From: Bacillota bacterium
GTDB taxonomy: Bacteria > Bacillota_I > Bacilli_A > RF39 > UBA660
NCBI GenBank assembly: GCA_015059485.1
Contig: SVAH01000001.1
Coordinates: 140,104 to 204,103 of the forward strand
Direction of reading: 5' to 3'
DNA length: 64,000 bases
The stretch's first letter is position 1, and every line of letters begins with the position of its first letter. The notes below the pieces were generated by a model. The model had not been told where the DNA came from and ran no database searches. It saw only the letters and a program-made list of their open reading frames with translations. Both the position numbers and the translations under genes were made by a program. Shown here piece by piece: positions 3,694 to 57,299 of this stretch.

Positions 3694-4632
3694 TTATAAT
3701 AGTTTTAACATAAAGATTTTTAACAGTGAATATTTATCAAAATAAACACTTTTTATTTGAAGATCACATTCATTTAACACTAACAAATTATTCTCTAATT
3801 CATTATAATTATAGTTGAAACTATTTTTTAATATTTTTTCCGTTTGCCAATCTTGTAGTTTCAATTCTTTTGAAATTGTATTTAAAGATTTATTTTCTTC
3901 GTAAAGTTGTTTTGTAAAATACATTAGTCTATATTCTCTAGCAAGCAAATTTATTAATGATATAGGTTCTACTTTCAAAATATTAAAGTCGTCTAACATT
4001 TTAAATGCTTTTTTTAAATCTCTATTTATTATATACTCTACAAATTTAAAATTATTTTCATCAATACTTTTAGATACTATTTTTTTGACATCTTCAAATT
4101 CAAATTTGCATGGTGCATTATAATATAATTTCAATTTTTCTAATTCATTATATATTAGATCATAATTATTTAAGCAATTATTTATTAAATAATTTATACT
4201 ATCAAGATCTATTGTATAGCCGTCATTTTTTACTATAGTCCTTATTTTATCTTGTAAATCTGAAAATTTTAATTTTTCAATATTGATTAGTTTGTATTTT
4301 TCTTTTATTTCCTTAGTAATTTTTTTTCGCATATCTGCTTTGCCGTTATATGTAAATATTAGAACAGTATTTTCGTTAGGATTTTCTATATATTTTAAAA
4401 GTAATTCATTATTTGTTTTGTTTTCTTTATCGTTGCCAAACATATAAGAATTTTTTGCAATAATTACTCTTTTTTCATTGAAAAGAGAAAGATAACTTGC
4501 TTCGTTTAATAACTCTTCTAAGGATATTATATTTAAATCAAATTTTTCGATATTTATCAGATTTTTAGTTATTTTTTTTATTTCTTCATCAATCAACCTA
4601 ATGCTTTCAGATACAATTAAATATATATTCAT
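3694..4632 (-). CDS. holA: DNA polymerase III delta subunit
   Basis: 312 aa, family-level resemblance to HolA (N-terminal Rossmann-like region, C-terminal helical region). Sits in the comE-holA neighbourhood common in Bacilli. Confidence 0.7.
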   Translation of the reverse strand: MNIYLIVSESIRLIDEEIKKITKNLINIEKFDLNIISLEELLNEASYLSLFNEKRVIIAKNSYMFGNDKENKTNNELLLKYIENPNENTVLIFTYNGKADMRKKITKEIKEKYKLINIEKLKFSDLQDKIRTIVKNDGYTIDLDSINYLINNCLNNYDLIYNELEKLKLYYNAPCKFEFEDVKKIVSKSIDENNFKFVEYIINRDLKKAFKMLDDFNILKVEPISLINLLAREYRLMYFTKQLYEENKSLNTISKELKLQDWQTEKILKNSFNYNYNELENNLLVLNECDLQIKSVYFDKYSLLKIFMLKLL

Positions 4633-5468
4633 GATTTTCTCCTTATTCTTTTATATTCCTCTGATTCTTGATATTGCCTTATTTTATTGTAAACTTTCGA
4701 ATAATCTATTTTGTTATAATATTGTGCCTTTTTAAAAATTCCTTTAACACCATCAAACGAATTCAAATATTGATAGTATTTAACTAAAAATTCTTTTTCA
4801 GTTTCATTGCAAATTGATACATATAATTTTGCAGTTTCGACTCCAAAGTTATCCATCAAAAAAAGTACTTCTTTTTCAGGTATTTCTATAAATGCTAAGT
4901 TTGCAATAGCATCATATCCAAGCGTTTTCATTAACTCATATACTAATTTTACTTCTTTAGGATAACCACAAGAATTTGTTCTTAAATCATATTTTTGTGC
5001 AATCATCCGAGTTAGTAATTCATTCATCCCTTCTTTTATAGCTGATGCTCCATCACTTCCACAATAATGCATAGTTTCATGTAATAGCAAATCTTCATAA
5101 TACTCTTCAACGGTGCTTCCACTTATAAAGACATGGTATATATATGATATAAAAGTGTTATCATTTATAACAATAGTTTTTTTATTGTATGTCTTATGTT
5201 TTTTGTTAATTCCATATCCAGGAATTTTACTAAAAGAATTAAGTGCATCTATTGCACTTAATGGCATCATAATATTATTCTCTGTTGCAAAAGCATTTAT
5301 ATTACCAAAATCTTCAATTTTTATGATTTGTTCATAATTATTTAAATCAATTAATTTATCTTTTTTTACAGGATCCATATAGTCTCCATATTCATTAATT
5401 ATGCACTTAATATAGTATTTAAGCTTTTTAGTTAAATTTTCATGAATTTGCTTTATATCATTTGTCAT
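4629..5468 (-). CDS. putative zinc metalloprotease (HExxH) of unknown family
   Basis: LLLHETMHYCG contains HExxH. The 3' end overlaps the holA start by 4 nt. Start moved to ATG 5468 (GAGGGA RBS 9 nt upstream). Confidence 0.45.
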   Translation of the reverse strand: MTNDIKQIHENLTKKLKYYIKCIINEYGDYMDPVKKDKLIDLNNYEQIIKIEDFGNINAFATENNIMMPLSAIDALNSFSKIPGYGINKKHKTYNKKTIVINDNTFISYIYHVFISGSTVEEYYEDLLLHETMHYCGSDGASAIKEGMNELLTRMIAQKYDLRTNSCGYPKEVKLVYELMKTLGYDAIANLAFIEIPEKEVLFLMDNFGVETAKLYVSICNETEKEFLVKYYQYLNSFDGVKGIFKKAQYYNKIDYSKVYNKIRQYQESEEYKRIRRKS

Positions 5469-7575: not shown

Positions 7576-8466
7576 TCACACTAATTCATATTCTCTAACA
7601 GCAATCCTATCATCTGAACAGTATTCTATTACAAAACTATTTTTTCTTTTACAAATTACAATGCCAATTGTACTATTATTACTTACTTCTTTTATATTTT
7701 TATCAATATAATTCATATATTTCTGTACTTGTGAAATATACTCAACTTTAAACTCTGTTACCTTCAATTCAACTACTACATAACAATTATATTTTATATT
7801 AAATAGTAACAAATCAATATAATGATTTCTGTCACCTATTTTTATCTTATATTCACTACCTATGAAACTAAATGAATTACCAAGTTCTTTCATAAATGAT
7901 TCGATATCTTCTAAAATTAAATGATGTAATGCTTTTTCAGTAATTATTTCTGTATTATTCTTATTCTTAATCAATATAGGATTTGGTATTAAATCTTTTA
8001 CTTCAATTTCATCATTAAACATCAACTTGTTTTTTGTTTCTAATGGTAATCTTTCATATTCCCCATTTTTAATTATTTCTTCTAGTTGTCTTTTCGAAAG
8101 ATTTCTTTTTTCTATTTGTTTGGCATAATAATTTATTTCATTATTATCAGTTAAACTAAACAATTGTCTTATATGACTAATTGATAATTTGGTCCCCAGT
8201 GGGGACCATTTTTGTTTTTCAAAGAATTGATACAATTGTCTCATTCTTCTTAAAGTTCTAGGATTGTATTTCTTATCAACTTCAACTTTTAATTTATTAG
8301 AATAATTACCAATAATATCTTCACCATAAGCACTACCGGCTTCCAACAATAGTTTGCCTACTTCATAATGTGTAATTAAGGTATGCTTTTCTTTTGAATA
8401 ATCCTTCACTTTTGAATATATTTCATCATCAATTAATTTGTTTTTTATCTCATTATAATAATTCAT
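7576..8466 (-). CDS. YhcG-like PDDEXK nuclease domain protein (DUF1016 family)
   Basis: N-terminal helical region (YYNEIKNKL...VGKLLLEA) and C-terminal IDLLLFNIKYNCYVVVELK, which is a D...E-x-K restriction-endonuclease-like core. Paralog at 50546..51466. Confidence 0.65.
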   Translation of the reverse strand: MNYYNEIKNKLIDDEIYSKVKDYSKEKHTLITHYEVGKLLLEAGSAYGEDIIGNYSNKLKVEVDKKYNPRTLRRMRQLYQFFEKQKWSPLGTKLSISHIRQLFSLTDNNEINYYAKQIEKRNLSKRQLEEIIKNGEYERLPLETKNKLMFNDEIEVKDLIPNPILIKNKNNTEIITEKALHHLILEDIESFMKELGNSFSFIGSEYKIKIGDRNHYIDLLLFNIKYNCYVVVELKVTEFKVEYISQVQKYMNYIDKNIKEVSNNSTIGIVICKRKNSFVIEYCSDDRIAVREYELV

Positions 8467-8478
8467 ATTTACTCCTTT

Positions 8479-10497
8479 CTATGGACTACAAGTCTCAATC
8501 TTTAATTTATTATTTTTTATCTTAAACATAATACTACCGTCCACGTCTGTTCTGTAAATTTTTGATTCTTTCAAGTTTTCTAACGCTTCTTTATTTGGAT
8601 GACCATATCTGTTATTTTTACCAACTGATATAACACTATATTTAGGATCTATCTCATCTATAAACTCTTTGCTACTACTTGTCTTAGATCCATGATGTCC
8701 AACTTTTAATACGTCTATATCTGGTAGATTATATTTATTCATTATTTCATTTTCAGTAGTTGTAGATGCATCCCCCATAAACATAAATTTATAACCATTA
8801 AGTTCTGTATAAATGACATTACTATTATCATTTTCATTATCATATTCTTTTGTTTGTAAAAAATATAATTTATTTCTATCAATATTTAATTCTTTAATAC
8901 ACGAATAATATTTTATTTTTTTCTTATCTAGTACTTTTATTAATTCATTCTCTAAATCATTAATTTCACCACAATTAAATATTACTTTCTCTACTTTAAA
9001 ATTATTTGCTAGATTAATAGCTTCTCCCATATGATCGTAATCTCCATGTGTTAGAATTAAATAATCTATTTTCGATTTTCCAAGGCTTTTTAAATAATTT
9101 ATTAAACTAATACTAATGCTAAATTCCTTTTTTTTCACTTTCCACTTTTCTTTTTTATTGAATGAAATTTTTCCACCAGTATCAATCACAATAGATTTAT
9201 TGTTTATATCTATCAATATGCTATCACCTTGTTCTACGTTTAAATAACTTACAAAATTATTATTAAAATAAAATCTGCATTTAGATACTAAAACTAAGAA
9301 TACTATTACAAAAAAATATCTTTTTTTCTTACAAATGGAATAAAAATATAATGTAATATAATATAAAATAATAAGAATTATTGTTGGTTTTCCAATAATA
9401 ATATTTATTTTAAAAACAGTTAGAAGTTTATTTAGTGATTCAAAAATGTTTATAAGGATTACTACAATGTTATTAATAGGTAAAATTAATGAAAATAATA
9501 ATAACGGAAAAAATATAATTGAAATAAATGGCACTATAATAATATTTATAATAATTGATAAGAAATTAACTTCGTAATTATTATAAAGAGTTATTGGCAA
9601 AGATAATATAAATGCATAAATTGATAATAAAAAAATATTTTTGGGTTTTAATAATAATAAACCTGCTGTAATTATAAATGAATATTGAAAAACTGTATCA
9701 AAAATTATGTATGGGTTAATGCATGACAATATTAATGCAGTAAATAAAAGAATTACTATATTTGAAAAAGAATTAATAAATTTTATCTTCTTCAATGTAT
9801 AAAATATAGTAACTCTTAATACAGATGGTGTAAGCATAACTAAGAATGAATAAAAGAATAAGATTATTATTATTATATAATCATTAATTCTAAATTTTTT
9901 TAGAATTAAAATAATAATAGATATATGCATGCCAGAAATGGCAAATAAATGCGTTATACCATTAGTTTTATATAAATCATAAACATCACTATCTAAATAC
10001 TGCTTATCGCCGAAAATAAACATATAATAGTACTCATTTCTTCTTTTTTTAATAATAAATTTAGAAAAAAAATTTCTTATCTTATAAAAAATATTACATT
10101 TTTTGTTTAATTTATAATTTGTTGTATTCATGATAAGATTAATGTTTTTGTATTTTAAATATTTTTTATAATTAAAATTATTAGGTATTGTATTATTACT
10201 AGGCACTTCTAATTTACCTCTAAGATAAATTTTAGAACCTAACACAATATTATTATATAGATACTTTTTTTCTTTATACGTTTTAATACGATAAGTAGCT
10301 ATTATTCTTTCTTTTCCTTTAACTTGCAGTGTTAATTTATCACCATCAATTTTATAATATTCAATAGTTCCATAAAAGTCATTTGAATTTATATTTGAAT
10401 TTCGATATCTAAATAATAATTTAAATATAATTATAAGTACAAATACAAGAATAACACTACAAAGAAATATTATCTTTGATTTTTTCAAATAATGCAT
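8479..10497 (-). CDS. comEC: DNA internalization competence protein ComEC/Rec2
   Basis: N-terminal OB-like region, polytopic competence domain, C-terminal metallo-beta-lactamase domain (LTHGDYDHMGEA ... VGHHGSKTSS). The start may instead be TTG 9 nt downstream. Confidence 0.9.
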   Translation of the reverse strand: MHYLKKSKIIFLCSVILVFVLIIIFKLLFRYRNSNINSNDFYGTIEYYKIDGDKLTLQVKGKERIIATYRIKTYKEKKYLYNNIVLGSKIYLRGKLEVPSNNTIPNNFNYKKYLKYKNINLIMNTTNYKLNKKCNIFYKIRNFFSKFIIKKRRNEYYYMFIFGDKQYLDSDVYDLYKTNGITHLFAISGMHISIIILILKKFRINDYIIIIILFFYSFLVMLTPSVLRVTIFYTLKKIKFINSFSNIVILLFTALILSCINPYIIFDTVFQYSFIITAGLLLLKPKNIFLLSIYAFILSLPITLYNNYEVNFLSIIINIIIVPFISIIFFPLLLFSLILPINNIVVILINIFESLNKLLTVFKINIIIGKPTIILIILYYITLYFYSICKKKRYFFVIVFLVLVSKCRFYFNNNFVSYLNVEQGDSILIDINNKSIVIDTGGKISFNKKEKWKVKKKEFSISISLINYLKSLGKSKIDYLILTHGDYDHMGEAINLANNFKVEKVIFNCGEINDLENELIKVLDKKKIKYYSCIKELNIDRNKLYFLQTKEYDNENDNSNVIYTELNGYKFMFMGDASTTTENEIMNKYNLPDIDVLKVGHHGSKTSSSKEFIDEIDPKYSVISVGKNNRYGHPNKEALENLKESKIYRTDVDGSIMFKIKNNKLKIETCSP

Positions 10498-11209
10498 CTC
10501 CTATCCCTGAAACATTTTTTATTTCTTCAATATTCTTAAATCCATTATTTTTTTCACGATATTCAATAATTGCAATAGCTTTTGATTCTCCAACGCCGGG
10601 AAGAGTCATTAACTTTTCTTTTGACGATGTATTAAGTGATACTATTGTATTATCCTCTATATTAGTATTACTTATATTATTTGTACTTTCTTCATTATCT
10701 GTGATTATAGCATTAATATCATTTCCATCAATTTTAGTTATTGCATTTTCACTACATTTTTCAACATTAATATTTTTGCATACACATTCACTAATTTCAT
10801 GATTATCTTTCTTTTTTAACTCATTTTTATTTGCAATCCTAATAACCATTTGATCTTCAAGTTTTCTACTTAAATTTATATTATCAGTTGTTGCATTTTT
10901 AGCAAGTCCACCTGCAATATTTATTAAATCAGATACATTTGCACCATTTTTAATTTCATAAACATTAGGTTTTTTTACGAAACCTTTTATATCCACTTTT
11001 ATCGTATTTTTTACATTCTCATCCCTTACATTTGCATCATTATTTTCGTTAATAGTAATTTTTGAAGACTGATTTTTGGAAATGCTTACATTTTCTTTTT
11101 TTATTACGTCTTTATATATTAAAAAACAAATGCCACTAATCATAAATATTAATAATAATGTACATATAATATTAAAATAATAATCAAATAATTCTTTTAA
11201 TTTGTTCAA
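10457..11209 (-). CDS. comEA: competence protein ComEA (DNA receptor)
   Basis: N-terminal TM helix, SLBB-like VDIKGFVKKPNVYEIKNGANVSDLINIAGG, C-terminal helix-hairpin-helix LMTLPGVGESKAIAIIEYRE...SGIGDALFEKI. TTG start 8 nt after GGAGG preferred over the track GTG. Confidence 0.85.
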   Translation of the reverse strand: MNKLKELFDYYFNIICTLLLIFMISGICFLIYKDVIKKENVSISKNQSSKITINENNDANVRDENVKNTIKVDIKGFVKKPNVYEIKNGANVSDLINIAGGLAKNATTDNINLSRKLEDQMVIRIANKNELKKKDNHEISECVCKNINVEKCSENAITKIDGNDINAIITDNEESTNNISNTNIEDNTIVSLNTSSKEKLMTLPGVGESKAIAIIEYREKNNGFKNIEEIKNVSGIGDALFEKIKDNISL

Positions 11210-11255
11210 ATTAATCACCTCCTTTTTTTAGTTTTTTTTGAAGGGGTTATTTTAC

Positions 11256-11295
11256 CCCTTCTACTAGTAATATTACAAAAAAGTTTGCAATTTCC
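11256..11295 (-). promoter_or_regulatory. 40-nt conserved upstream element, copy 1 (upstream of comEA-comEC)
   Basis: Minus-strand reading GGAAATTGCAAACTTTTTTGTAATATTACTAGTAGAAGGG. It is 37/40 identical to 44138..44177 upstream of the bacteriocin-type ABC exporter. Confidence 0.55.
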
Positions 11296-11358
11296 TTTTT
11301 TTTCAGTGAAATTTATCAAAAAAATTATTTTTCAAATAAAAAAAAGATGTTTCCATCC

Positions 11359-12366
11359 TTAAATATCTATATATTCATACCCTAAATGTTTATATGCTTT
11401 TTCACATGCAACACGACCTCTTTGTGTTCTTTTAACAAAACCTTCTTGTAATAGGTATGGTTCTATTACATCTTCAATAGTTGTTGGTTCTTCACCAATG
11501 GATGTTGCTATTGTTTGGACACCAACAGGGCCTCCATTAAATTTTTCGATAAGTGCTTCTAAATATTCTTTATCTATTTGATCTAATCCTTCATCATCTA
11601 CATTCAATCTTTTTAATGCTTTAGCAGTTATTTCTTTAGTAATAATACTTCCTTCTTCTACTAAAGCGAAGTCTCTAACGCGCTTAAATAGTCTGTTTGC
11701 AATTCTTGGCGTTTTTCTACTTCTATTAGCAAGTTCTACTACCGCATCATCTTCAATAGGCATATTAAGAACTCTACTTGTTCTTTTAATTATCATCCCC
11801 AATTCTTCAGTAGAATAATAATTTAATTTAGAAACTATTCCAAAACGATCTCTTAAAGGTGCGGATATATCCCCTGAACGTGTTGTTGCTCCAACTAAAG
11901 TAAATGGTGGCAAATCTATTTTTAAACTTCTACTTTTACCGTCATTACCAATTATTATGTCAAGTTCAAAATCTTCCATAGCCGGGTAAAGAATCTCTTC
12001 TATATATCTTGGCATTCTATGTATTTCATCTATAAATAAAACATCACCAGGTTCTAAGTTAGAAAGAATTGCAGCCAAATCTCCTGGTTTTTCAATAGAA
12101 GGTCCAGAAGCAGTTTTTAAGTCACTTCCAAGTTCATTAGCAATTATATGAGCAAGTGTTGTTTTTCCAAGCCCTGGAGGGCCATATAATAGTACATGAT
12201 CTAATACTTCATCTCTCATTTTACAAGCTTTAATAAACACTCTTATATTTTCTTTTACTTCAGTTTGGCCAACATATTCATCTAAATATTCTGGCCTAAT
12301 ATTATTTTCAAAATTGTCAGCTTCCAATTTTTCATCTGTAATTATTCTTTCATCCATCTTATTCAT
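11359..12366 (-). CDS. ruvB: Holliday junction branch migration helicase RuvB
   Basis: Walker [17 protein letters not shown] sensor region, full-length match to the RuvB pattern. Confidence 0.95.
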
Positions 12367-19069: not shown

Positions 19070-20089
19070 TTAATAATCAATATCTGATAGAGGTACTTCT
19101 ATCGCTGGTCTTGCATAGTTCATAGATGTGACAGAATCATATGAAACATTTGAACTATAGGTATCTATATCAAATGCTGAATCATTTCTTCCATCAACTC
19201 CTGATTCAAGCCATATGTAATAAACAGAATTTGATGAATTACTGTAATTACTATCTTCAAGTAAGAAATTGCAAGAATATGAAAGCGGACCACCTGAATC
19301 CATAACGCCAACAGAATTATAACTAACAACTTGTGCAGGTATTGAACATCCAGCACTAACTTCTTGGTATGTTAATAATCTCGAAGCATAACCTGAATAA
19401 CTAAAGTTCAATTTTAATATGTTACCGGAACTATCCGTAATATGCCCAGATCTTATTTCTGGTGCATTTTTCCATTGTGTGGTATTATAAAGTTCATTTA
19501 AAGCATATTGTGGTCCATACGATGTATTACCATAATTGTTATAAGAAATATGGCCAGAAGAAAGACGATAAGTGTTACTTGTTTTAGCATATGCTAAAAC
19601 TGCAATATTTGAATCTGCTCTCATATGTCCATTATTCATAGTAGATACATAATAAAATCTTTCAGAATCGCTTTCATAATGTCCATTACCATTTACATCG
19701 CAATCAAACGCATCTCCAGCTTTTAAAGTCCCAGCAGTAGTTGAAATATTTCCATATGTTATAGTATCTCCATGACCATAAGTTTTATAATTATTTTGTA
19801 CGTGGCATGCACTTCCTGTCATACAAGTTTCAGTATGCAATGTTGATGTAGATGCCCTTTTACATAGTTTTTTTTCCGTACATGTATAACCTTCTGGACA
19901 TCTACTCTTACATTCTTGTGAAAGATTTAATAATTCAGTTAATGCACCATTAACTGTAGTTTCACTAGTTGCACTATTAGAATATAAAACTTGCTCAGAT
20001 GGAACGCTTACTGCATATGCTGCCATAGTAATTCCAAGTATAATACCCGTTAATATTCCAAATATCATTTTTGAAGATATTTTTTTCAT
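19070..20089 (-). CDS. secreted Cys-rich lectin-like protein, paralog 1
   Basis: Sec signal peptide (cleavage about AYA|VS). Shares CPEGYTCTEK...LHTETC...ITYGN...GDAFDCDVNG...RFYYVSTM...ARLLTYQEV...FLLE...WLE...RPAIEVPLSDIDY with the adjacent gene. Confidence 0.7.
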   Translation of the reverse strand: MKKISSKMIFGILTGIILGITMAAYAVSVPSEQVLYSNSATSETTVNGALTELLNLSQECKSRCPEGYTCTEKKLCKRASTSTLHTETCMTGSACHVQNNYKTYGHGDTITYGNISTTAGTLKAGDAFDCDVNGNGHYESDSERFYYVSTMNNGHMRADSNIAVLAYAKTSNTYRLSSGHISYNNYGNTSYGPQYALNELYNTTQWKNAPEIRSGHITDSSGNILKLNFSYSGYASRLLTYQEVSAGCSIPAQVVSYNSVGVMDSGGPLSYSCNFLLEDSNYSNSSNSVYYIWLESGVDGRNDSAFDIDTYSSNVSYDSVTSMNYARPAIEVPLSDIDY

Positions 20090-20125
20090 ATAATTACCTC
20101 CATTTCTATTTCAAAATATTTATTA

Positions 20126-21163
20126 TCAATAGTCTATATCCTCTAGTGGAACCTCAATTGCGGGGCGAACACCACAGTAGAGAGAGTTGCTGACGGCAGA
20201 GCCGCCGTTCACGTTACGGTAGTTCGAGTAGACTGACCAAGCGCGGTCAGTGCGACTCTCGACCGGAGTCTCTAGCCAAGGTCCGGTTGTTGAATTTGAA
20301 GAATTGGTATATTTAGTATTTTCTAATAAAAATTCACATTTACTATATATTCCATTATTTACCCCTAGATTAATTGAACCATTATAACACCCGTTATATA
20401 CTTCTTGATACGTTAAAAGTCTTGCTTGTGCTCTACCATAGTCAAAATCTACAACAGGTGTTCCAATTTCGTCAGTTATAAGTCTTGTAGATGATTTTAA
20501 ACTTACTCCTGGCCAACTAACTGGTGCATTTCCAGGTAAGTGTTTTTTTGCTGTAACAGGGCCTTTAGTATTCGAATTAGATGACAAACCAGTATCTGCC
20601 ATTGTTGCCCATGCTACACCTGTTGTATTATTATGTCCATTTACTACATTAGTATAATACACTAATACTGCATAGTTACTATCATTTACATCACTATGAC
20701 CTGCCATTGTTGATACATAATAGAATCTTGCTGCTTCTCCATTAACCATGTATGATCCATCACCCATTACATCGCAATCAAATGCATCACCTGTTGCTAA
20801 TGTTCCCTTAGTTCCTACATTACCATATGTTATAGAATGTCCATTTCCTCTTGTTTCTGCACAATGACCATATGATTGATTACATGTTTCTGTATGCAAC
20901 TCTGATGAATGCCCTACTCTTTTACATATTGGTCTTTTTTCTGTACACTCATATCCATCTGGGCATGTAGTTCCACATGTGTGTGCTGTATCAATAAGTT
21001 CGTCAAGAGTCCCTTTTACTGTCGTTTGACTAGTTAATGTGTGAGAATATGTTACTTCATTAGAAGTAATACTATTGGCGTATACTGCTATTGATATTCC
21101 TATTATTAAGCCTGCTATTGTACCAATTGAATAATCTTTAAAAAATTTTAATAATTTTTTCAT
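20126..21163 (-). CDS. secreted Cys-rich lectin-like protein, paralog 2, with GC-rich variable-region-like C-terminus
   Basis: Signal peptide (about VYA|NS), same conserved blocks as paralog 1. The C-terminal YWLE..AW.V.....GVRPAIEV pattern resembles DUF1566/C-type-lectin-like ligand-binding folds. Confidence 0.7.
   Translation of the reverse strand: MKKLLKFFKDYSIGTIAGLIIGISIAVYANSITSNEVTYSHTLTSQTTVKGTLDELIDTAHTCGTTCPDGYECTEKRPICKRVGHSSELHTETCNQSYGHCAETRGNGHSITYGNVGTKGTLATGDAFDCDVMGDGSYMVNGEAARFYYVSTMAGHSDVNDSNYAVLVYYTNVVNGHNNTTGVAWATMADTGLSSNSNTKGPVTAKKHLPGNAPVSWPGVSLKSSTRLITDEIGTPVVDFDYGRAQARLLTYQEVYNGCYNGSINLGVNNGIYSKCEFLLENTKYTNSSNSTTGPWLETPVESRTDRAWSVYSNYRNVNGGSAVSNSLYCGVRPAIEVPLEDIDY
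20129..20287 (-). other. GC-rich NNC-codon patch (candidate DGR variable region plus IMH)
   Basis: Abrupt composition switch. 21 of the 52 terminal sense codons end in C (AAC x4, TAC x3, GTC x3, CGC x3, GGC x2...), whereas the homologous stretch of paralog 1 uses ordinary AT-rich codons. Confidence 0.5.
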
Positions 21164-21202
21164 ATTCTCACCCTACTTTAAATAATTATAACATAAATTT
21201 TA

Positions 21203-21970
21203 TTAAAATAAATAAAATAATTTAACAATATTGTAAAATTTATCATAGTATAAAAATACTATAAATAAAGACGAAACAATGAATGGTCCAAATGGAACTT
21301 CATTATCTTTATTTAGTACAATTGTTGCAAGTGCATAAGGAAGTGCTAAGAAAGTGGAAAATATTAAAGATACCATAGATACTTGTATTCCAAGCACCAT
21401 TCCTATTACAAATGATAATTTAATGTCTCCTCCACCTAGCGCCTCTCGTTTATATATTTTTTTACCAATAAATCCTACGAGTAACATTATTATAAAAACC
21501 ACTAAGCCATATATTAATGATAAAAACGCTGTACTCCAATTATAATATACTACTTTTAATATAAAAATTAAAATAGATGATATTATAAGTGGCGAATCAA
21601 GTATTATCATGAATTTAAAATCACTTATAAATATTAAGATACTTAGTGAAGATAAGATTAAAGATATAAAAAACTCATAGGATATTCCAAAATATAAATA
21701 GCTAAATAAAAATAATATACCACAAGAAAGCTCCGATAAAAATAAATCATAAGGTAAATCATGATGACAATGTCTACATTTTCCTTTTTGCAATAAGTAT
21801 GAAAGAAGCGGTATATTTTCATACCACTTTAAAGGCGTATTACAATAATCACAATGACTCCCTGGTTTAACTATAGATTTATTTTGTGGCAATCTTAAGG
21901 CAACCACATTATAAAACGATCCCATAATTATTCCAAATATGAATAAAATAATTGAAAAATAAATAACCAT
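21203..21970 (-). CDS. pilD: prepilin peptidase (A24 family)
   Basis: N-terminal CDYC...CRHC zinc-binding pairs, polytopic membrane protein, GGGDIKL catalytic Asp motif. Confidence 0.85.
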   Translation of the reverse strand: MVIYFSIILFIFGIIMGSFYNVVALRLPQNKSIVKPGSHCDYCNTPLKWYENIPLLSYLLQKGKCRHCHHDLPYDLFLSELSCGILFLFSYLYFGISYEFFISLILSSLSILIFISDFKFMIILDSPLIISSILIFILKVVYYNWSTAFLSLIYGLVVFIIMLLVGFIGKKIYKREALGGGDIKLSFVIGMVLGIQVSMVSLIFSTFLALPYALATIVLNKDNEVPFGPFIVSSLFIVFLYYDKFYNIVKLFYLF

Positions 21971-21973
21971 TTT

Positions 21974-23551
21974 TTAACCTACACTTCCCATTAAATTAAA
22001 CATCGGAATAACAACTGCTAAAATAATTGTTCCTACAACAACTGCTAAGCCTGCAATTAAAACTGGTTCAATAAAACTTTTCAAAGCCCCTACAATACTT
22101 CTATGTTGCTCTGAATAATAATCTGATACTGTTTGCATCATCTCTGCAAGTTCTCCAGTTGATTCACCAGTAACAATCATATAATATGCTACATCAGGAA
22201 CAGCCCATTGTTTTTTAAAGGCATCTGATATTTTTCTACCTTCAATAATATTATTAATAGTTTTAATCATTATTTCTTTATATATTTCATTAGTTGTTAT
22301 CTTACTTAGAATCTCAACACTAGTTGTAATAAATACATTATTTCTTAAAAGTGACGCAAACGTTTTTGTAAATATTGTCAATTCATTATATATAATTACG
22401 CTTTTGACAACAGGTAAATGCATAAAAAATACTTGCATTGACTTTCTAACTGCTTTAACGTTTTTATACATCCATATTATTAATATTACTATTCCTAGAA
22501 CTACTCCTAGTACAACAAGCGCATTGGCCCTTAAAAAATTACTAGATTCAAGCACAAATCTTGTTAACCCAGCAACAGGGGCATTTGATTGAGCATATAT
22601 TTTTTCAAATTGAGGAATGACATATAATAAAATAAATGTTACAACACCTATAGCAAAAACACTTACTATTGCAGGATATGAAATAGCGCTAATCATTTCT
22701 TTACGAGTTGCTTCTACTTCTTCATAATAATTAGCCATATCTGTTAGAGTTTCTTCAATATTTCCTGTTGCTTCTGCAGCTTTAACCATATTAACTAGTA
22801 AACTTGGAAACATCTTTCCTTGTTTTTCTAGACAGCTTGAAAATGCTTCTCCATTCGTAAGCTCATAAGTTATAGCCTGAAAAATTCTTTTTTGAGTTGG
22901 TTTTTTATTCATTTGGTTTGAAAGAATTCTAATTGCTTCTGCAAGTGGAATACCAGCTTTTAAATATGTTGATAACTGACTTAATAAAAATATTAAATCT
23001 TTATTAGACATTTTATTTCCTATAATAGATGTTTCACCATATAATTTTTGTAAAAGAGGACTTGTTTCAATTTTATATACATCATATCCTTCACTTATTA
23101 AGAATGTATATACATCTAATTTAGAATAAGCATAAAATACTTGATTTACTACTTTACCATCAGTATCTCTAGCAGTATATTTGTATACTACTGCTTTTTC
23201 ACTTCTAACAGATCCTTCATCATTTAAAGTTGAAAGCAATTTTTGTTTTTCTTTTTCATAGTAATCATTTCTACTTTTTACCCAAGGCAGTTTATTATAA
23301 AATTCTTGTCTTTTTTTTCTTTGTTCTTCTTTTAAAATTTCTTCCTTTTCTGAAGATGTTAAAAAACCTTGTGATGCAGTTGAAATTGCTTTGTCAGCAG
23401 TGCCTCCAACTACATTAAAAATATAAAATATCCATTCATATAATATAAATTTAAAACCCTTAAAAGCAAAAATAAATATATATGCAAAAATCATTGTAAA
23501 TGATTCTTCTTTATCATTTTCTACTATAGATTGTGCTTTTACATCATCCAT
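21974..23551 (-). CDS. pilC: type II secretion system F / PilC family platform protein with about 110 aa N-terminal extension
   Basis: Two T2SSF repeats (LSTYLKAGIPLAEAI..., FASLLRNNVFITTSV...). An extra N-terminal TM helix plus a charged segment precedes the usual VYKYTARDTDGK start. Confidence 0.85.
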   Translation of the reverse strand: MDDVKAQSIVENDKEESFTMIFAYIFIFAFKGFKFILYEWIFYIFNVVGGTADKAISTASQGFLTSSEKEEILKEEQRKKRQEFYNKLPWVKSRNDYYEKEKQKLLSTLNDEGSVRSEKAVVYKYTARDTDGKVVNQVFYAYSKLDVYTFLISEGYDVYKIETSPLLQKLYGETSIIGNKMSNKDLIFLLSQLSTYLKAGIPLAEAIRILSNQMNKKPTQKRIFQAITYELTNGEAFSSCLEKQGKMFPSLLVNMVKAAEATGNIEETLTDMANYYEEVEATRKEMISAISYPAIVSVFAIGVVTFILLYVIPQFEKIYAQSNAPVAGLTRFVLESSNFLRANALVVLGVVLGIVILIIWMYKNVKAVRKSMQVFFMHLPVVKSVIIYNELTIFTKTFASLLRNNVFITTSVEILSKITTNEIYKEIMIKTINNIIEGRKISDAFKKQWAVPDVAYYMIVTGESTGELAEMMQTVSDYYSEQHRSIVGALKSFIEPVLIAGLAVVVGTIILAVVIPMFNLMGSVG

Positions 23552-41087: not shown

Positions 41088-41119
41088 ACAAACAAAAAAT
41101 CGGTTTTCAAACCGATTTT
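41088..41119 (-). terminator. rho-independent terminator
   Basis: aaaatcggt / accgatttt stem followed on the minus strand by ttgtttg. Confidence 0.6.
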
Positions 41120-41122
41120 ACA

Positions 41123-41278
41123 CTATTTGTTCTTTTTTACCATACAATTCGCTTCATCTAACATCGAATTAATCAATTTGTTAGCATTCTTCTTTGTTTC
41201 ATTATTCATTAAAACATATGTAGTTAAACCAGCTGTTGTAATCATGGTAAGTCCTATTAAACCCATAGCTTTTTTCAT
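41123..41278 (-). CDS. small membrane protein (51 aa; candidate immunity protein, speculative)
   Basis: MKKAMGLIGLTMITTAGLTTYVL TM helix plus a charged tail. AAGGATGTGA RBS before ATG 41278. Sits immediately downstream of the bacteriocin-like genes but after their terminator. Confidence 0.4.
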   Translation of the reverse strand: MKKAMGLIGLTMITTAGLTTYVLMNNETKKNANKLINSMLDEANCMVKKNK

Positions 41279-41332
41279 TATAATCACATCCTTACATTTA
41301 GTATGTATTAAAATGATAAATATATACATCTA

Positions 41333-41367
41333 ATATAAAACAAAAGAGACCAATAAATAGTCTCTTT
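41333..41367 (-). terminator. rho-independent terminator after the double-glycine peptide genes
   Basis: aaagagac / gtctcttt stem followed on the minus strand by tgttttatatt. Confidence 0.6.
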
Positions 41368-41374
41368 AAAATAT

Positions 41375-41530
41375 TTAACACCAACTTCTAGATATTGCTC
41401 TTCTAATTGATGTACCAACGGTTCTCCCTAAATCTAGAATAGTATTTATAGCACGACTTGCAGCATTAATGTAAGTAGCTGTTAATCCTCCACCACTTAC
41501 ATTTATTAGTTCATGTTTTTCTAATTTCAT
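41375..41530 (-). CDS. double-glycine-leader peptide 2 (51 aa): MKLEKHELINVSGG|GLTATYINAASRAINTILDLGRTVGTSIRRAISRSWC
   Basis: Not in the ORF track (under 60 aa). The ATG overlaps the upstream stop (TAATG). The leader fits the L-x-x-x-E-L-x-x-(I/V)-x-G-G consensus. The mature part has a GxxxG (GRTVG). Confidence 0.75.
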   Translation of the reverse strand: MKLEKHELINVSGGGLTATYINAASRAINTILDLGRTVGTSIRRAISRSWC

Positions 41531-41673
41531 TATTTATGACACTTCAATGGTCTTATAAGCCCATCGATTACCCCTACTATAAATACTCCGCCTGCTATAA
41601 TAGCTGCTAATGCTGCTCTAGAAATTGCTCCGCCTGTTATGTTATTCATTGTTTCATTACTAAGTCTATTCAT
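41530..41673 (-). CDS. double-glycine-leader peptide 1 (47 aa): MNRLSNETMNNITGG|AISRAALAAIIAGGVFIVGVIDGLIRPLKCHK
   Basis: Not in the ORF track. ATG overlaps the upstream stop (ATGA), GGAG RBS. GG leader, hydrophobic mature peptide with GxxxG (GVIDG). Confidence 0.75.
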   Translation of the reverse strand: MNRLSNETMNNITGGAISRAALAAIIAGGVFIVGVIDGLIRPLKCHK

Positions 41674-42083
41674 TTAAAAACTCCTTTCAATATTTTTTTA
41701 ACAATGTAATCTTTATCAAAATAAAAAGTTAAATCTACTATTTCATTTTCTTTTTTATTTTGAATATTCGTTTTTATTATGACATCTTGTAAGCTAGTAT
41801 TTCCATCATTATATATTTCACTAAATTCATAGATTTTAAAATTTGAAACGGTATTATCAATTTTTATTTTTTTGCTTTTTTTTATTACTGAAATATTAGA
41901 TGTATTTACTGGGACGATTAACTCATTTTTACTTATAATACCTTTGATATGAATTTTACTATAAGTTTTATAATTTAAAATTAAAAGGAAGGACAATACT
42001 ATTATAGTTATATAAAATATTAATAAGAACATTAATGAAAAAGGTTTAGAATAAATAAAATTCATATTATTATAAGTTTTCAT
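41670..42083 (-). CDS. small single-TM accessory protein of the peptide-export operon
   Basis: 137 aa, N-terminal TM helix then a beta-rich domain. It occupies the position of the HlyD-type accessory protein in C39-ABC bacteriocin loci but is much shorter. Confidence 0.45.
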   Translation of the reverse strand: MKTYNNMNFIYSKPFSLMFLLIFYITIIVLSFLLILNYKTYSKIHIKGIISKNELIVPVNTSNISVIKKSKKIKIDNTVSNFKIYEFSEIYNDGNTSLQDVIIKTNIQNKKENEIVDLTFYFDKDYIVKKILKGVFK

Positions 42084-42084
42084 T

Positions 42085-44127
42085 TTAATCCCCTATCTTT
42101 AAGCATTTTTCAAACATTGATTCATGTTCTTTATGAGTTACGTATATTAACGTTCTATTTCTTAATTCATTTTTTAGATTACCTATAATATTTCTTTCTA
42201 ACTCAATATTTACCTCACTTAATGCTTCATCTAGAATTAAAATTTTAAAATTCCGATAAAGAGCTCTTGCTAATATAATTCTTTGTTTCTCTCCTCCTGA
42301 TAAATTGCTAAAATCTTTATCAATATAAGTTTCATAACGAAGTGGCTTTTTTGAAACTATTTCATCTAAACAACATATTTTAGCAATTTTATCAAATTTT
42401 TCTACATCATATTTTTTATTTAATAAAATATTATTTTTTATTGTGTCATTAAACAAGAATTCATTTTGAGACAAATACAAAATATTATTTCTAACAGTTT
42501 TTAAAGGATAATCTTTGATATTAATACCTCCTATACAAATACTTCCATTATCATATTCATAAGTTCTATTTAAAAGCTTGCAAAAAGTACTTTTTCCAGT
42601 TCCACTTTTTCCTTTAATCATAACTTTAGAATACTTAGGTATAATTAAATTAACATTATTTAATGTTTTATTATAATCATTATAAGAATAACTCATATTT
42701 TTAACTATTATATCTCCGTTTAAAAATTTAGTACTTTCATCTAATACTTCACCTTCCAAAGAATTAAACTCTAATATCTTCTCAAAAGAAGCTTTAAGAT
42801 AATTAAATTTTGGAAATAGATTCATTATATTTTTTAATGGTTCAACCAAGTACACTAGGACTGACTCAAAAGTAATGAAATCAACTAATGATAAATTATT
42901 ATGTAAAAACTCTATAATACCAACAGTTATGATAGTATAATACATAAAATCTATTATAGCATTCTTTAAAGTATTAATAATATTTAACCTTTTAGTAATA
43001 TCAAAATTAGTTTTCAAATAACTAATTAAACTATTATTAATCTTCAATTTTGCATAGTTTTCTAAAGAATTGTTTTTAATTGTATCAAAAGCATTACACT
43101 TTTCAATTACATCACTACTAAAGGATTCATTACTTTCGATATTTTCTTTTATCATATTATAAATCATTTTATTAGTAACTAAACATATTCCTACAAACAG
43201 AATTAAAAATATAATAAGTATTAATAGAAGTTTAGAATTAATAAAATATAATACAACAAATGTCATAATAACAAGCAAACTGTTGATAAATAATGTTACT
43301 ACTATATCTGAGACAAATTCATGAAGATTATTAAGTTCTGTAACTCTAGTAATTATTTCACCAACATTTCTACTTTTTAGTACTCTAGAAGGAAGATTAA
43401 AAAGTTTATCAAAAAAATTATTATTTACATTGAAATCAATGTTTTTTATAAGGTAATTTTTTAAATATGTAGACAATAACTCAAGGAAAATTTTAGTAAA
43501 ATAACAGAAAAAGAAAATTATAAATAATATTTTTAATAGTTTATTATCATCTACATTATTAAAGCATACCTTAAAATAAAAACCTGTGATTATTGTAAAA
43601 ATTACATTAAATAATCCAAACAACATTATTTTTATAACTAAACTTTTTTCACTTTTAATAATTTTTGTAATTGATTTTACAAGTGAGTTCTTCTTATAGT
43701 TTGCTATATAAGTAGACTTTAAATAGCAAACTATTATAACATTAGTAAAAACTTTTTTAAATTTTTCTAACTCAAACTTCACTATTCCTTTTGATGGATC
43801 CATTACTATTACAAATTTTTTGGTAATTTTATAGATAACTACATAATGGTTTAGTCCATTTTCTAAGCATAAATGTGCAATAACTGGTAAAACCAAATTT
43901 TTTTCATTAAGCTTATCAAATGCAATCTTGGCGCCATAAGAATCAAAACCATATTTAGTTAATGTGTTTACCATATGAAATGCAGTAGTTCCAGAGTTAT
44001 CTGTAAAACAATCACTCCTAATTTTTTCTAAAGGAACATAACCACCATAGTATTTTAATATTGATAAAATACATGCTGGGCCACAGTCTTTAAAATCGCG
44101 TTGTTTGACTACTTGAAATTTTTTCAT
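42085..44127 (-). CDS. peptide-cleaving/exporting ABC transporter with N-terminal C39 peptidase domain
   Basis: C39 domain (QRDFKDCGPACILSIL catalytic Cys; HYVVIYK His), 6-TM domain, Walker A GKSGTGKST, signature LSGGEKQR, Walker B ILILDEA. Confidence 0.9.
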   Translation of the reverse strand: MKKFQVVKQRDFKDCGPACILSILKYYGGYVPLEKIRSDCFTDNSGTTAFHMVNTLTKYGFDSYGAKIAFDKLNEKNLVLPVIAHLCLENGLNHYVVIYKITKKFVIVMDPSKGIVKFELEKFKKVFTNVIIVCYLKSTYIANYKKNSLVKSITKIIKSEKSLVIKIMLFGLFNVIFTIITGFYFKVCFNNVDDNKLLKILFIIFFFCYFTKIFLELLSTYLKNYLIKNIDFNVNNNFFDKLFNLPSRVLKSRNVGEIITRVTELNNLHEFVSDIVVTLFINSLLVIMTFVVLYFINSKLLLILIIFLILFVGICLVTNKMIYNMIKENIESNESFSSDVIEKCNAFDTIKNNSLENYAKLKINNSLISYLKTNFDITKRLNIINTLKNAIIDFMYYTIITVGIIEFLHNNLSLVDFITFESVLVYLVEPLKNIMNLFPKFNYLKASFEKILEFNSLEGEVLDESTKFLNGDIIVKNMSYSYNDYNKTLNNVNLIIPKYSKVMIKGKSGTGKSTFCKLLNRTYEYDNGSICIGGINIKDYPLKTVRNNILYLSQNEFLFNDTIKNNILLNKKYDVEKFDKIAKICCLDEIVSKKPLRYETYIDKDFSNLSGGEKQRIILARALYRNFKILILDEALSEVNIELERNIIGNLKNELRNRTLIYVTHKEHESMFEKCLKIGD

Positions 44128-44137
44128 TCTTTTTTCT

Positions 44138-44177
44138 CCCTTCTACTAGTCATATTACAAAAAAGTTTGTGATTTCC
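44138..44177 (-). promoter_or_regulatory. 40-nt conserved upstream element, copy 2 (upstream of the C39 ABC exporter)
   Basis: Minus-strand reading GGAAATCACAAACTTTTTTGTAATATGACTAGTAGAAGGG, 37/40 identical to 11256..11295. Its 3' GAAGGGAG doubles as the RBS 8 nt before the ATG. Confidence 0.55.
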
Positions 44178-44266
44178 TTCTTTTTTCCAAAAAAAAATTA
44201 AAAAACTTGCATTTTTTAACTTTTTTACATATATTTTTACGCTTTAAAAAGTATATTTAGTGTAAA

Positions 44267-49546: not shown

Positions 49547-50565
49547 TAACTAATAGGCAAAAAAACTTTATGGTAATATTCTGCTGTAATTCTCTATTTT
49601 TAGGATTAGGATATTTTATTATATTTAATACAACAAACAATAATTCTTTTATATGTTCTTTAATAGGTGGTCTTTTAGGTTTACTATTTACATTTATATA
49701 TAAAATTTTTCTTGAAAAGAAAAAGGATAAAAGACTTACTGAATTTTTAAATGAATATAACACATTAGGAAAAATAATAAGATTATTACTAATATTATTA
49801 AGTATAGCTATCACCCTTACAAATATATTTATAATAAAAGAATTTATAAAATCTTTTTTTCTAATTAATATGCCATCATTTCTTATAACTTTACCTATTT
49901 TATTATTAATAGTATATATCTCTTTTAAAGATTACAATATACTTGCATACATTTCTGAATGTTTAATACCAATTTCATTAGTTTTAACTATATTTATATT
50001 TATTGCATTAATCTTTAAAGCCGACTATTCAAATTTAAAGCCATTCTTTTCCAGTAATACAATATCCATGATTAAATCTATTTTTTATTACTTTGTATTA
50101 TCAACTTCTCCATTACTACTTCTAAGTGATATAAAATTTAATAGTTATAATATATCAAATGTATATTTACTTAACTCAATTATAATAACTATCACAAGCG
50201 TATTAATAACGGGAATACTAGGAAATTTTTTAACTAAAACATATAGATTTTTGGAATACATGATATTAAAAAATATACAAATATTTAACTTTATAGAAAA
50301 AATAGAGAATATACTCTCTATTTCTTGGATTATCAATTCTTTTTTACTACTATTCTTATCAAGTCTATTTCTTAAAAATTTATTGCCTAAAAAATATAAT
50401 AACTACAGTCATTTTTTTATAATTCTTACAATAAATATAATAGTATGTACTTTAATGTCTAATAGTTATTTTGAACTAATTAATTTATATATACCCTATA
50501 TATTAGGCTTTTTACTAATATCAATAACAATATGCTTTATAATTATTAACTTAAAACATATGTAG
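49543..50565 (+). CDS. spore germination permease, GerAB (B-subunit) family
   Basis: 340 aa, about 10 TM helices, third gene of the A-C-B germinant receptor operon. Confidence 0.75.
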   Translation: MITNRQKNFMVIFCCNSLFLGLGYFIIFNTTNNNSFICSLIGGLLGLLFTFIYKIFLEKKKDKRLTEFLNEYNTLGKIIRLLLILLSIAITLTNIFIIKEFIKSFFLINMPSFLITLPILLLIVYISFKDYNILAYISECLIPISLVLTIFIFIALIFKADYSNLKPFFSSNTISMIKSIFYYFVLSTSPLLLLSDIKFNSYNISNVYLLNSIIITITSVLITGILGNFLTKTYRFLEYMILKNIQIFNFIEKIENILSISWIINSFLLLFLSSLFLKNLLPKKYNNYSHFFIILTINIIVCTLMSNSYFELINLYIPYILGFLLISITICFIIINLKHM

Positions 50566-51466
50566 TGTTATATATTCTAGGATCAGAACAATATTTCATT
50601 ACATATTTATTATTTTCTTTTGCTATTATTATTCCTATTGTTTTATCTTGATATATTGTTTTTATATTTGTATCTACATAATTCATGTATACTTGTATTT
50701 GTCCAATATGTTCTTTTTCTAATTTTGTTGTTTTTAGTTCTACTACTACATATGAATTATACTTTATATTAAATAACAATAAATCTATATAATTATAAGT
50801 ATTACCCATTTTTATTTTATATTCATTTTCTATAAATGTAAAACCATCACCTAGTTCTTTTAAAAATGTAGGTATTTCTTCAAGGATCAATTCTTGTAAT
50901 GCTTTTTCAGATATATTTTCATCTTTCTTAGTATTCTTTATAATTATTGGATTCTTTACAAAATCTGCTATTTCATATTCTTGTGTACTATCTAAAGATA
51001 ACTTATGCTTTGTCTCTTCACTTAATCTTTCATATTCTTTTGATTTTATCTTTTCACCTAACTGCCTATAACTCAAATGATACTTTTCACATATATCAAT
51101 ATAATATTTTATTTGTCCATTATCTTTTAAAGTAAATAATTTTTTATAATGATTCCAACTTAAATTGAAATTGGCACGCAATGCACGCCATTTTATGTTA
51201 TTAATAAATAAAAAAAATTGTCTCATCTCTCTTAAAGATCTTTCACTATATTTAAGTCCTGTTTCTTTTAATAGTTTAATAGAATATTCTTTAATTAGAC
51301 CATTACCATATTTTGCTCTTTCTTCTCCTCCTTGTGCTTCAATTAACATCTTACCTACATTATATTTAGTTTCAAGTTCACTTTTATTAATTGAATATTC
51401 TTTTACTTTCTTTGTTATTTCATAGTTTAATAGTTCTTTTTTTATTTCATTATAATAGTTTTCCAA
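50546..51466 (-). CDS. YhcG-like PDDEXK nuclease domain protein (DUF1016 family), second copy
   Basis: Co-linear with 7576..8466 (YYNEIKKEL...VGKMLIEA...IDLLLFNIKYNSYVVVELK). Its 3' end overlaps the gerAB 3' end by 20 nt (convergent). Confidence 0.65.
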   Translation of the reverse strand: MENYYNEIKKELLNYEITKKVKEYSINKSELETKYNVGKMLIEAQGGEERAKYGNGLIKEYSIKLLKETGLKYSERSLREMRQFFLFINNIKWRALRANFNLSWNHYKKLFTLKDNGQIKYYIDICEKYHLSYRQLGEKIKSKEYERLSEETKHKLSLDSTQEYEIADFVKNPIIIKNTKKDENISEKALQELILEEIPTFLKELGDGFTFIENEYKIKMGNTYNYIDLLLFNIKYNSYVVVELKTTKLEKEHIGQIQVYMNYVDTNIKTIYQDKTIGIIIAKENNKYVMKYCSDPRIYNTTYVLS

Positions 51467-54773: not shown

Positions 54774-54796
54774 TATTATCCTCCCTTTCTAATTAT

Positions 54797-56900: not shown

Positions 56901-56909
56901 GCTATCCCT

Positions 56910-57299
56910 CTATTCTTTTATTACTTTTATTTTATTCTTTTCTTTATATCCTTTTATGCTTGTTTTAATTTTATATTTTTTTAAACCTATTATTTTTCCA
57001 AAAATACTATCTATTTCATAATAGTTTTTAATTTTTAAATATTCTTCCTTCTTATCTATTTTTACATTTTCATAATTTATTTTATTTTTCTTATATAAAT
57101 TATAAATCTTATCTTCCATATCATTATCAAATCTATTATCAAACATTTCTTTAATTATAGTTTTAGTAGTGCTGTCTAATTTAATTTTTTCATTTGTCAT
57201 GTAGGAAACATCAACTACTAAAGCAAGCATCATTATCAAAAGTGGTATTAATATTACAAACATTATTAACGTTTGACCTTTTTTATTTAATTTATTCAT
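56910..57299 (-). CDS. TadE/TadG-like pseudopilin
   Basis: KKGQTLIMFVILIPLLIMMLALVVD N-terminus typical of TadE/G-like proteins. Confidence 0.6.
   Translation of the reverse strand: MNKLNKKGQTLIMFVILIPLLIMMLALVVDVSYMTNEKIKLDSTTKTIIKEMFDNRFDNDMEDKIYNLYKKNKINYENVKIDKKEEYLKIKNYYEIDSIFGKIIGLKKYKIKTSIKGYKEKNKIKVIKE

Follow-up and report, generated by a model that had tools for sequence, protein, structure and literature searches.

The window analysed here, a stretch of 64 kb with a G+C content of 25%, carries two minus-strand operons whose upstream regions share a 40-nt element (Table 1). The first operon comprises comEA, comEC, which overlaps it, and, after a gap of 12 nt, a gene for a PDDEXK nuclease of the YhcG type; ruvB lies upstream of this copy. 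The ComEA product (250 aa) is identical to the database entry P0001, which comes from a MAG labelled 'Firmicutes bacterium'. The second operon encodes a C39 ABC exporter, a membrane protein and two double-glycine peptides, and a CmpB-like gene is found on the other side of its copy of the element. The two peptides are kept across four species with 54-76% identity, and each has an invariant C-terminal Cys. Between the terminator of the exporter operon and nusB lies a small ORF (41123-41329, minus strand), to which a separate terminator (41096-41119) belongs; its product, called as 51 aa in L001, begins MKKAMGLIGLTMITTAGL and could be an immunity-type protein.

Table 1. Coordinates of the features of both putative promoter regions and operons in the window, followed by the upstream sequences of orthologous loci
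Feature	Position	Strand	Sequence or basis
40-nt element, comEA copy	11295..11256	-	GGAAATTGCAAACTTTTTTGTAATATTACTAGTAGAAGGG
40-nt element, exporter copy	44177..44138	-	3 mismatches to comEA copy
A-tract before comEA -35	11299-11304		sequence
comEA promoter -35 element	11290..11298	-	AAAGGAAAT; matches SigH -35 RWAGGAWWT
comEA promoter spacer, 11 nt	11279..11289	-	TGCAAACTTTT; A-rich then T-rich
comEA promoter -10 region	11270..11278	-	TTGTAAT+AT, KWAT core TAAT; position as RnnGAAT in SigH promoters
TAGTAG, predicted start region of comEA transcript	11261..11266	-	start predicted about 11264-11262
comEA 5'-leader hairpin	11240..11261	-	GAAGGGGU-AAAAUA-ACCCCUUC; fold
comEA RBS	11222-11218	-	GGAGG; sequence
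comEA start codon	11209-11207	-	TTG; sequence
comEA-comEC-yhcG operon	7576..11209	-	Pfam, gene spacing
comEA	10457-11209	-	Pfam SLBB+HHH_3
comEC	8479-10497	-	Pfam Competence+Lactamase_B
yhcG-type (YhcG/DUF1016) PDDEXK nuclease gene	7576-8466	-	Pfam
ruvB	11359-12366		Pfam RuvB
Exporter promoter -35 element	44172..44180	-	GAAGGAAAT
Exporter promoter spacer, 11 nt	44161..44171	-	CACAAACTTTT; identical in exporter ortholog L008
Exporter promoter -10 region	44152..44160	-	TTGTAAT+AT
Exporter TAGTAG, running into RBS	44148-44143	-	sequence
Exporter RBS	44143-44136	-	GAAGGGAG; 8 nt before ATG at 44127
Exporter operon	41343..44127	-	Pfam, ORFs, terminator
C39 ABC exporter	42085-44127	-	Pfam Peptidase_C39/ABC_membrane/ABC_tran
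137-aa membrane protein	41670-42083	-	
Double-glycine peptide, 47 aa	41530-41673	-	
Double-glycine peptide, 51 aa	41375-41530	-	
Exporter operon terminator	41343-41367	-	
L002 comEA, 70% identity to window protein			GAAGGAAAT tgaaaaaaaat TTGTAAT ATGACTAGTAGAAGGG
L003 comEA, 59%			AAAGGAAAT tgaagattttt CAGTAAT ATGTATAGTAGAGGGAGG
L006 comEA, 51%			AAAGGAAAT aacaaattttt CTTGTAT AAGACTATTAGAGGAGG
L008 exporter, 69%			AAAGGAAAT cacaaactttt TGGGAAT ATGACTAGTAGAAGGGAG
L009 exporter, 66%			GAAGGAAAT caaagttctac CCGGTAT ATGACTAGTAGAAGGGAG
L010 exporter, 56%			AAAGGAAAT cgaggatttat CGGTAAT ATAACTAGTAGAAGGGAG

A preliminary description of this DNA had presented the element as a 40-nt box shared at 37 of 40 positions by the regions upstream of comEA and of the C39 exporter operon, lying in the coding orientation and preceded by an A-tract. 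The mismatch search and the shuffles bear out the identity of the two copies, sequence and Pfam confirm their positions, and the orientation and the A-tract are seen at both. The copies are co-oriented and each lies directly upstream of an operon. No further match with up to 3 mismatches exists in the 64 kb window, and none occurred in 100 dinucleotide-preserving shuffles; the next-best site in an ungapped scan of the window agrees at 25/40 positions. The pattern AGGAAAT-N14-KWATAT matches the window exactly twice, versus 0.05 matches expected, and shifting its spacing by +1 leaves no match in the window, both sites being lost. On a position weight matrix (PWM) derived from the promoter-like metagenome sites described below, the two copies score 27-28 bits versus a shuffle maximum of 13-17 and are the only convincing sites of the window. 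Hence, the shared element stands, but its anatomy is not that of one 40-nt box: it is best read as a bipartite promoter followed by a start-site/RBS module.

The layout of the bipartite part is that of promoters read by the alternative sigma factor SigH. In Listeria monocytogenes, the SigH-dependent promoters of comEABC, comG, coiA and dnaG-rpoD have the sequence AAAGGA(A/T)TT-N11-GGCGAAT or GAAGAAT and lie 19-22 nt from the gene (PMC4754846). Those of C. difficile with mapped starts follow AAAGGAwww-N11/12-RnnGAAT, with transcription starting 8-10 nt after the final T (PMC7438776 Table 3), and GTAT replaces GAAT in a few of them, namely CD1900 and CD2650 (PMC7438776). In S. aureus, comE and comG are also driven by SigH (PMC3486894). 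Both window elements possess the -35 sequence RWAGGAWWT, and their 11-nt spacing falls within the known 11-12 nt. Compared with RnnGAAT, the -10 reads TTGTAAT in the window and TGGGAAT in the exporter ortholog L008, and members of the class have GAAT, TAAT, GTAT or TTAT; the canonical GAAT is carried by this ortholog and by many metagenome sites. For dnaG, the -10 goes, among the metagenome matches listed, from GTCGAAT/GTAGAAT at 39-41% GC to GTCGTAT/GTTGTAT/nnnTAAT at 20-30% GC. Because the -35, the spacer length and the distance to the start codon match those of SigH promoters, and because dnaG shares the motif, we favour, with a probability of roughly 0.7, the reading that each copy forms the promoter and 5' terminus of its operon and is recognised by RNA polymerase bound to a SigH (Spo0H)/ComX-family alternative sigma factor.

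In such a promoter, sigma region 4 would read AAAGGAAAT at the -35, and region 2 would read nnKWAT at the -10 after the fixed 11-nt spacer, TTGTAAT being the window's variant of RnnGAAT. Transcription would begin 8-10 nt past the -10, within TAGTAG; with the C. difficile start distances, the predicted start falls on the central G or A of this hexamer, around 44146-44144 for the exporter transcript. The exporter mRNA would then carry its RBS almost at its 5' end, and the comEA mRNA an additional hairpin leader ahead of its RBS. This agrees with the earlier reading of the 3' bases of the element as the RBS in the exporter copy and as part of a hairpin before a separate GGAGG in the comEA copy, both of which are seen. 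Since the element precedes both operons, they are probably switched jointly: activity of the sigma factor would induce comEA-comEC-yhcG at the same time as the exporter/two-peptide operon.

The comEA leader hairpin (-15.1 kcal/mol, z -3.17) is peculiar to this comEA copy. A PreQ1-I riboswitch in this leader (11222-11264, minus strand) was rejected: it scores 26.8 bits versus the Rfam gathering threshold of 39, the alignment lacks three loop positions, and L002, L003, L006 and L107 give no match. A SAM-II match of the leader, also rejected, has an E-value of 0.39 and nothing similar in orthologs. Both matches stem from the hairpin plus an A-rich (CUAA) tail, the PreQ1 one probably being a chance resemblance. 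The exporter upstream region has no Rfam match. A leader peptide in the exporter copy (ATGACTAGT...) was discarded as well: its ATG reads ATT or ATA in the other copies, so there is no conserved mini-ORF.

The preliminary description had found no good sigma-A promoter in the element and had proposed an alternative-sigma or activator site. The first point holds, since sigma-A matches are at background level only in both the comEA and the exporter regions. Two other regulatory sites were set aside: neither copy contains the AAAA-N5-TTTT unit of a ComK box, nor a sigma-A promoter with it, and a 0A box is absent from the window copies. In B. subtilis, comE is ComK-dependent and not SigH-dependent. 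As to the activator, the conservation past the putative SigH -10 needs explaining, and ATATATAGTAG, found in many metagenome sites, includes TATAGT, which agrees with the sigma-A -10 at 5/6 positions. Both observations would fit an activator binding AAGGAAAT over the -35 while the housekeeping sigma uses a weak downstream -10 (TATAGT in many relatives). This arrangement is nevertheless quite improbable: the window lineage has ACTAGT at that place, without the essential A at -11, a -35 resembling TTGACA is not conserved at a distance of 16-18 nt, and the sigma-A scans gave background only. Moreover, typical activator sites are unlike AAGGAAAT, an asymmetric single-copy box, and the geometry is exactly that of SigH promoters. 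Comparative sequence therefore supports the earlier proposal in its first form, a SigH/ComX-type alternative sigma factor rather than an activator.

Within this family, the resemblance is to SigH rather than to streptococcal ComX. ComX and SigH are related competence master regulators in lactic acid bacteria, and ComX recognises the cin-box TTNCGAATAA (PMC9300618). The window -10, TTTGTAATAT, agrees with the cin-box (TACGAATA) at 7/10 positions when the N of the latter is counted as a match. The SigH/ComX-type likeness noted earlier is thus upheld for the SigH-like -35 and the spacing but not for the streptococcal cin-box, which we reject because of the -10 mismatch and the strongly conserved -35 of the window elements. 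As regards the sigma factor itself, the host carries the sporulation genes SpoIIIAH, GerE and GerA, and is therefore expected to have a sigH gene. Endospore formers possess sigH. In a tblastn search of the window and of 155 loci, using a B. subtilis SigH sequence, no sigH or comX gene was found; only the rpoD downstream of dnaG matched.

Orthologous loci were reached through homologs of the ComEA and exporter proteins and their contigs, independently of the motif. Both the comEA (L002, L003, L006) and the exporter loci (L008, L009, L010, L013) keep AAAGGAAAT-N11-nnKWAT-ATnACTAGTAG. AAGGAAAT is invariant in 11/11 sites anchored by protein or genome, and the spacer between -35 and -10 measures 11 nt at every anchored site while its sequence varies among orthologs. 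TAGTAG, as TA(G/A)TAG, is present in seven of the eight protein-anchored sites. Exporter orthologs L008, L009 and L010 keep ACTAGTAGAAGGGAG, and L013 has ACTAGTAGAAGGGAA. The gene order around the exporter is constant in the window and four further species (spoIIIAH, cmpB, exporter, a protein of about 137 aa, two peptides); the upstream neighbours of comEA vary by species, being ruvB, an ABC transporter or ftsW/spoVE. An invariant box, a variable spacer of fixed length, a semi-conserved nnKWAT and a conserved AT-n-AC-TAGTAG running into the RBS argue for a promoter and not a repeat. Moreover, the orthologs that carry the motif have diverged to 51-70% protein identity, so its presence on both operons predates the split of these species. 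Judged from these alignments, the pairing of the comEA and exporter promoters is ancient in the lineage and does not stem from a recent duplication.

Two annotation problems were met among the related loci. As called in GCA_964533935.1 (L006, 4001-4060), comEA extends across the promoter; its real start codon seems to be ATA. L013, L022 and L023 are titled 'uncultured Muribaculaceae'; with 23-28% GC and genes resembling those of the window Firmicute, their taxon labels look wrong.

The same data bear on two readings in which the likeness of the copies has no regulatory meaning. The window pair agrees at 16/19 pattern-free positions, against an average of 7.9 when class members are paired at random, which could point to a recent copy or gene conversion of a promoter cassette as the main source of the 37/40 identity, without selected co-regulation. 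Such an origin is very improbable. The association is old, both operons carrying the motif in several diverged species, and in other lineages the promoters of distinct genes are equally alike: 16/19 for an ABC transporter and a PDDEXK_2 gene (L028 / L069), 18/19 for a 795-aa predicted protein and a C39 exporter (L039 / L106) and for the radC region and YhcG (L103 / L112), and 15-16/19 among DnaG, TopA, RhuM/Fic and YhcG (L064, L096, L113, L141). Identity as high as this in these lineages makes the likeness of entire promoters in one genome a feature of the class: either recognition extends to the spacer, or the promoters evolve in concert. Two high-identity occurrences in 64 kb could also suggest a dispersed repeat or miniature mobile element, an origin that is barely credible. 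The window holds only two copies, both in coding orientation and ending at the RBS, no terminal inverted repeats or target duplications accompany them, orthologous positions are kept with variable spacers, and a PWM scan of 924 kb of related loci adds only 5 sites, all ahead of small toxin-like peptide genes. A repeat dispersed irrespective of gene orientation, named in the preliminary description as the outcome that would speak against a regulatory site, is excluded in the window and the related loci. The copies are thus best taken as promoters.

Other loci of the window lack the motif. The PWM scan gave no convincing site upstream of a PilC/PilD/pilin cluster, a Tad-like locus and a second yhcG paralog, and the -35/-10 pattern scan of a 10-kb extension of the window (L145) gave nothing convincing. 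The first of the two pilus-like clusters (19070-23551, minus strand) encodes a PilC-like T2SSF protein whose N-terminus is greatly extended, together with a PilD-type prepilin peptidase and two pilin-like proteins of 340 aa, and has no ATPase next to it; the Tad-like locus (53071-57636, minus strand) has a CpaF-type ATPase and TadB/C-like and TadE-like proteins. Of the YhcG/DUF1016 paralogs, one belongs to the comEA-comEC operon and the other (50546-51466, minus strand) has its own upstream region. A weaker SigH-like sequence, AGGCAAT-N11-GAGGAAT, is found at about 4640-4680 (minus strand), 22 nt before the ATG of holA (3694-4632) and within the 3' end of the ORF ahead of it. Its -35 has one mismatch and its -10 the canonical GAAT; TAGTAG is absent.

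We then consider where else the motif occurs. A scan of GTDB representative genomes, among which the source MAG does not figure, with AGGAAAT-N22-CTAGTAGAAGG returned 12 matches, 4 of them genuine, namely two exporter orthologs (GCA_964533935.1 and 'Bacilli bacterium MAG100') and two genes of the PD-(D/E)XK_2 nuclease family (L022, L023). The other 8 lie inside genes of unrelated taxa. In GCA_964533935.1, the motif precedes three transcription units, those of comEA, the exporter and a PDDEXK_2 gene. Metagenome contigs were scanned with AAGGAAAT-N16-ATAT-N3-TAGTAG, which gave at least 120 stretches, with 101 unique sites among the matches listed. At least 43 sites (43/101 among the matches listed) are promoter-like, that is, intergenic, preceded by an A-tract and immediately followed by an RBS. 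Since AAGGAAAT, ATAT and TAGTAG are imposed by the pattern, independent evidence comes only from the positions that it leaves free and from the gene context. In the -10 region of the 43 listed sites, position 22 is G or T and position 23 A or T, and the A-rich/T-rich spacer is general for the class among the metagenome matches listed. Where a gene could be called, the start codon mostly lies about 7-20 nt past TAGTAG, sometimes 40-120 nt after a leader. The same pattern gave 10 matches in the phage collection IMG/VR, all of them in-gene chance matches and 0 promoter-like, and a phage promoter class was rejected on this ground.

The genes behind the metagenome motif include comEA (L107), radC (L025, L076) and dnaG at no fewer than 7 loci (at least L064, by Pfam, and L031, L050, L072, L092, L100 and L133, recognised from their CHC2 zinc finger). 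Nucleases are frequent: YhcG (L027, L108 and L112 by Pfam; L033, L082, L085 and L141 by eye), PDDEXK_2 (L069) and MvaI/BcnI-family endonucleases (L034 group, L049). Also found are a UvrD-like helicase (L087), ORF6N, Bro-N, RhuM/Fic and MazF-like genes, C39 exporters (L047, L106), ABC transporter ATPases and small toxin-like peptides. Near-identical copies of the motif stand before an MvaI/BcnI-like gene in L034, L046, L066-L068, L080, L091, L094, L137 and L142, on contigs of up to 330 kb, some labelled human gut metagenome, which probably come from one organism. In L053 (minus strand, three copies), L093, L097, L116 and L143, the motif stands ahead of tandem genes for hydrophobic peptides of 22-33 aa, e.g., MSKKGLLIFCLLIIIALLIILG. 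The 5' end of the small-peptide mRNA, including the RBS, is predicted to pair with the 3' end (-66.5 kcal/mol, z -7.4), and these mRNAs resemble type I toxin mRNAs of the hok/fst style.

This gene set, rich in nucleases, the UvrD-like helicase, Bro-N, ORF6N, RhuM/Fic, MazF-like and type-I-toxin-like genes, would also be expected of a DNA-stress, defence or toxin regulon under a non-SigH alternative sigma factor, either ECF-type or a lineage-specific group-4 one, whose likeness to SigH would be convergent; the TAGTAG module and the KWAT -10 are indeed unlike characterised SigH promoters. We regard this as unlikely, however, since the -35 sequence is the SigH consensus itself, and dnaG, a conserved SigH target, carries the motif with a -10 range from GAAT to GTAT that looks like a continuum. 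In B. subtilis, too, dnaG-rpoD is a classical SigH target (sigA P3).

Whether the regulon is one of competence is another matter. The element had been put forward as a competence regulon box, for which comEA-comEC and radC speak, the only canonical competence genes seen behind the motif; comG, comF, dprA, ssb and coiA were not seen behind it in any fetched locus. The regulon is, on the other hand, broader than proposed, with dnaG, nucleases, toxin-like peptides and ABC transporters. The name 'competence regulon' is an inference from comEA-comEC and radC; 'SigH-type regulon', with many genes for DNA handling and toxins, would suit the gene set just as well. Only tentatively, then, do we suggest that these spore-forming gut and rumen Bacilli of 25% GC possess a SigH-family natural-transformation regulon that comprises uptake genes, nucleases, RadC and a conserved, chromosomally fixed two-peptide bacteriocin with its exporter, and whose promoters are read over about 45 nt.

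This extent brings us to the TAGTAG module. In the small-peptide mRNA of the L053 type, the predicted fold pairs the 3' end with UAGGAGGGCAU, which begins at the second TAG; as the pairing runs from there, the transcript would start at or before this TAG. The module could reflect a preferred start site, or serve as an operator or as a signal at the 5' end. TAGTAG and the similar spacers within a lineage go beyond what SigH recognises in Listeria and C. difficile, and a second factor may be involved.

If the natural-transformation regulon is real, it would represent a fratricide-like module outside streptococci, and a recognition of about 45 nt, including TA(G/A)TAG and the lineage spacers, would imply an unusually extended sigma specificity or a partner factor that is always required. 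How far SigH-family sigma factors read promoter DNA is a question raised by this module and these spacers. Our results suggest a candidate programme of the competence type in a group of uncultured Firmicutes from gut and rumen, and a coupling of DNA uptake to peptide or bacteriocin export beyond streptococci. On the practical side, AAGGAAAT-N14-KWATAT-N3-TAGTAG is a very specific search motif with which the regulon can be defined in MAGs without cultivation, and the element would provide a compact regulated promoter-plus-RBS cassette for low-GC Firmicutes.

The theme itself, SigH/ComX control of DNA uptake coupled to bacteriocin export, is already known from streptococci, and what we describe is a lineage-specific form of it. 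Streptococcal ComX drives both the late competence genes (comEA/EC) and the two-peptide fratricide bacteriocin cibAB from a shared combox. The coupling of competence to bacteriocins is described in two reports (PMC5295010, PMC4497675).

Compared with the SigH promoters of Listeria and S. aureus, the likeness lies in the -35 box, the 11-nt spacer, the distance of about 20 nt to the start codon, and the targets comEA-comEC and dnaG. On the contrary, the -10 core is here TAAT or GTAT and not GAAT, with a T instead of a purine as the first -10 base in the window; a TA(G/A)TAG start module and lineage-conserved spacers are present, the regulon includes a C39 exporter/two-peptide operon, and the host belongs to an uncultured, spore-forming, low-GC lineage of Bacilli. 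With the SigH promoters of C. difficile and B. subtilis, the elements share the layout, a predicted start distance, the GTAT variants of the class and spore-forming hosts, but the C. difficile promoters lack the TAGTAG module found in the window. Finally, the streptococcal ComX regulon resembles the one proposed here by its SigH-family sigma factor, by the association of DNA uptake with a two-peptide bacteriocin, and by a T-rich tract before a (C)GAATA-like -10. It differs in that a conserved -35 is missing from ComX promoters but forms the strongest element in the window class, and in that the exporter itself belongs to the operon here.
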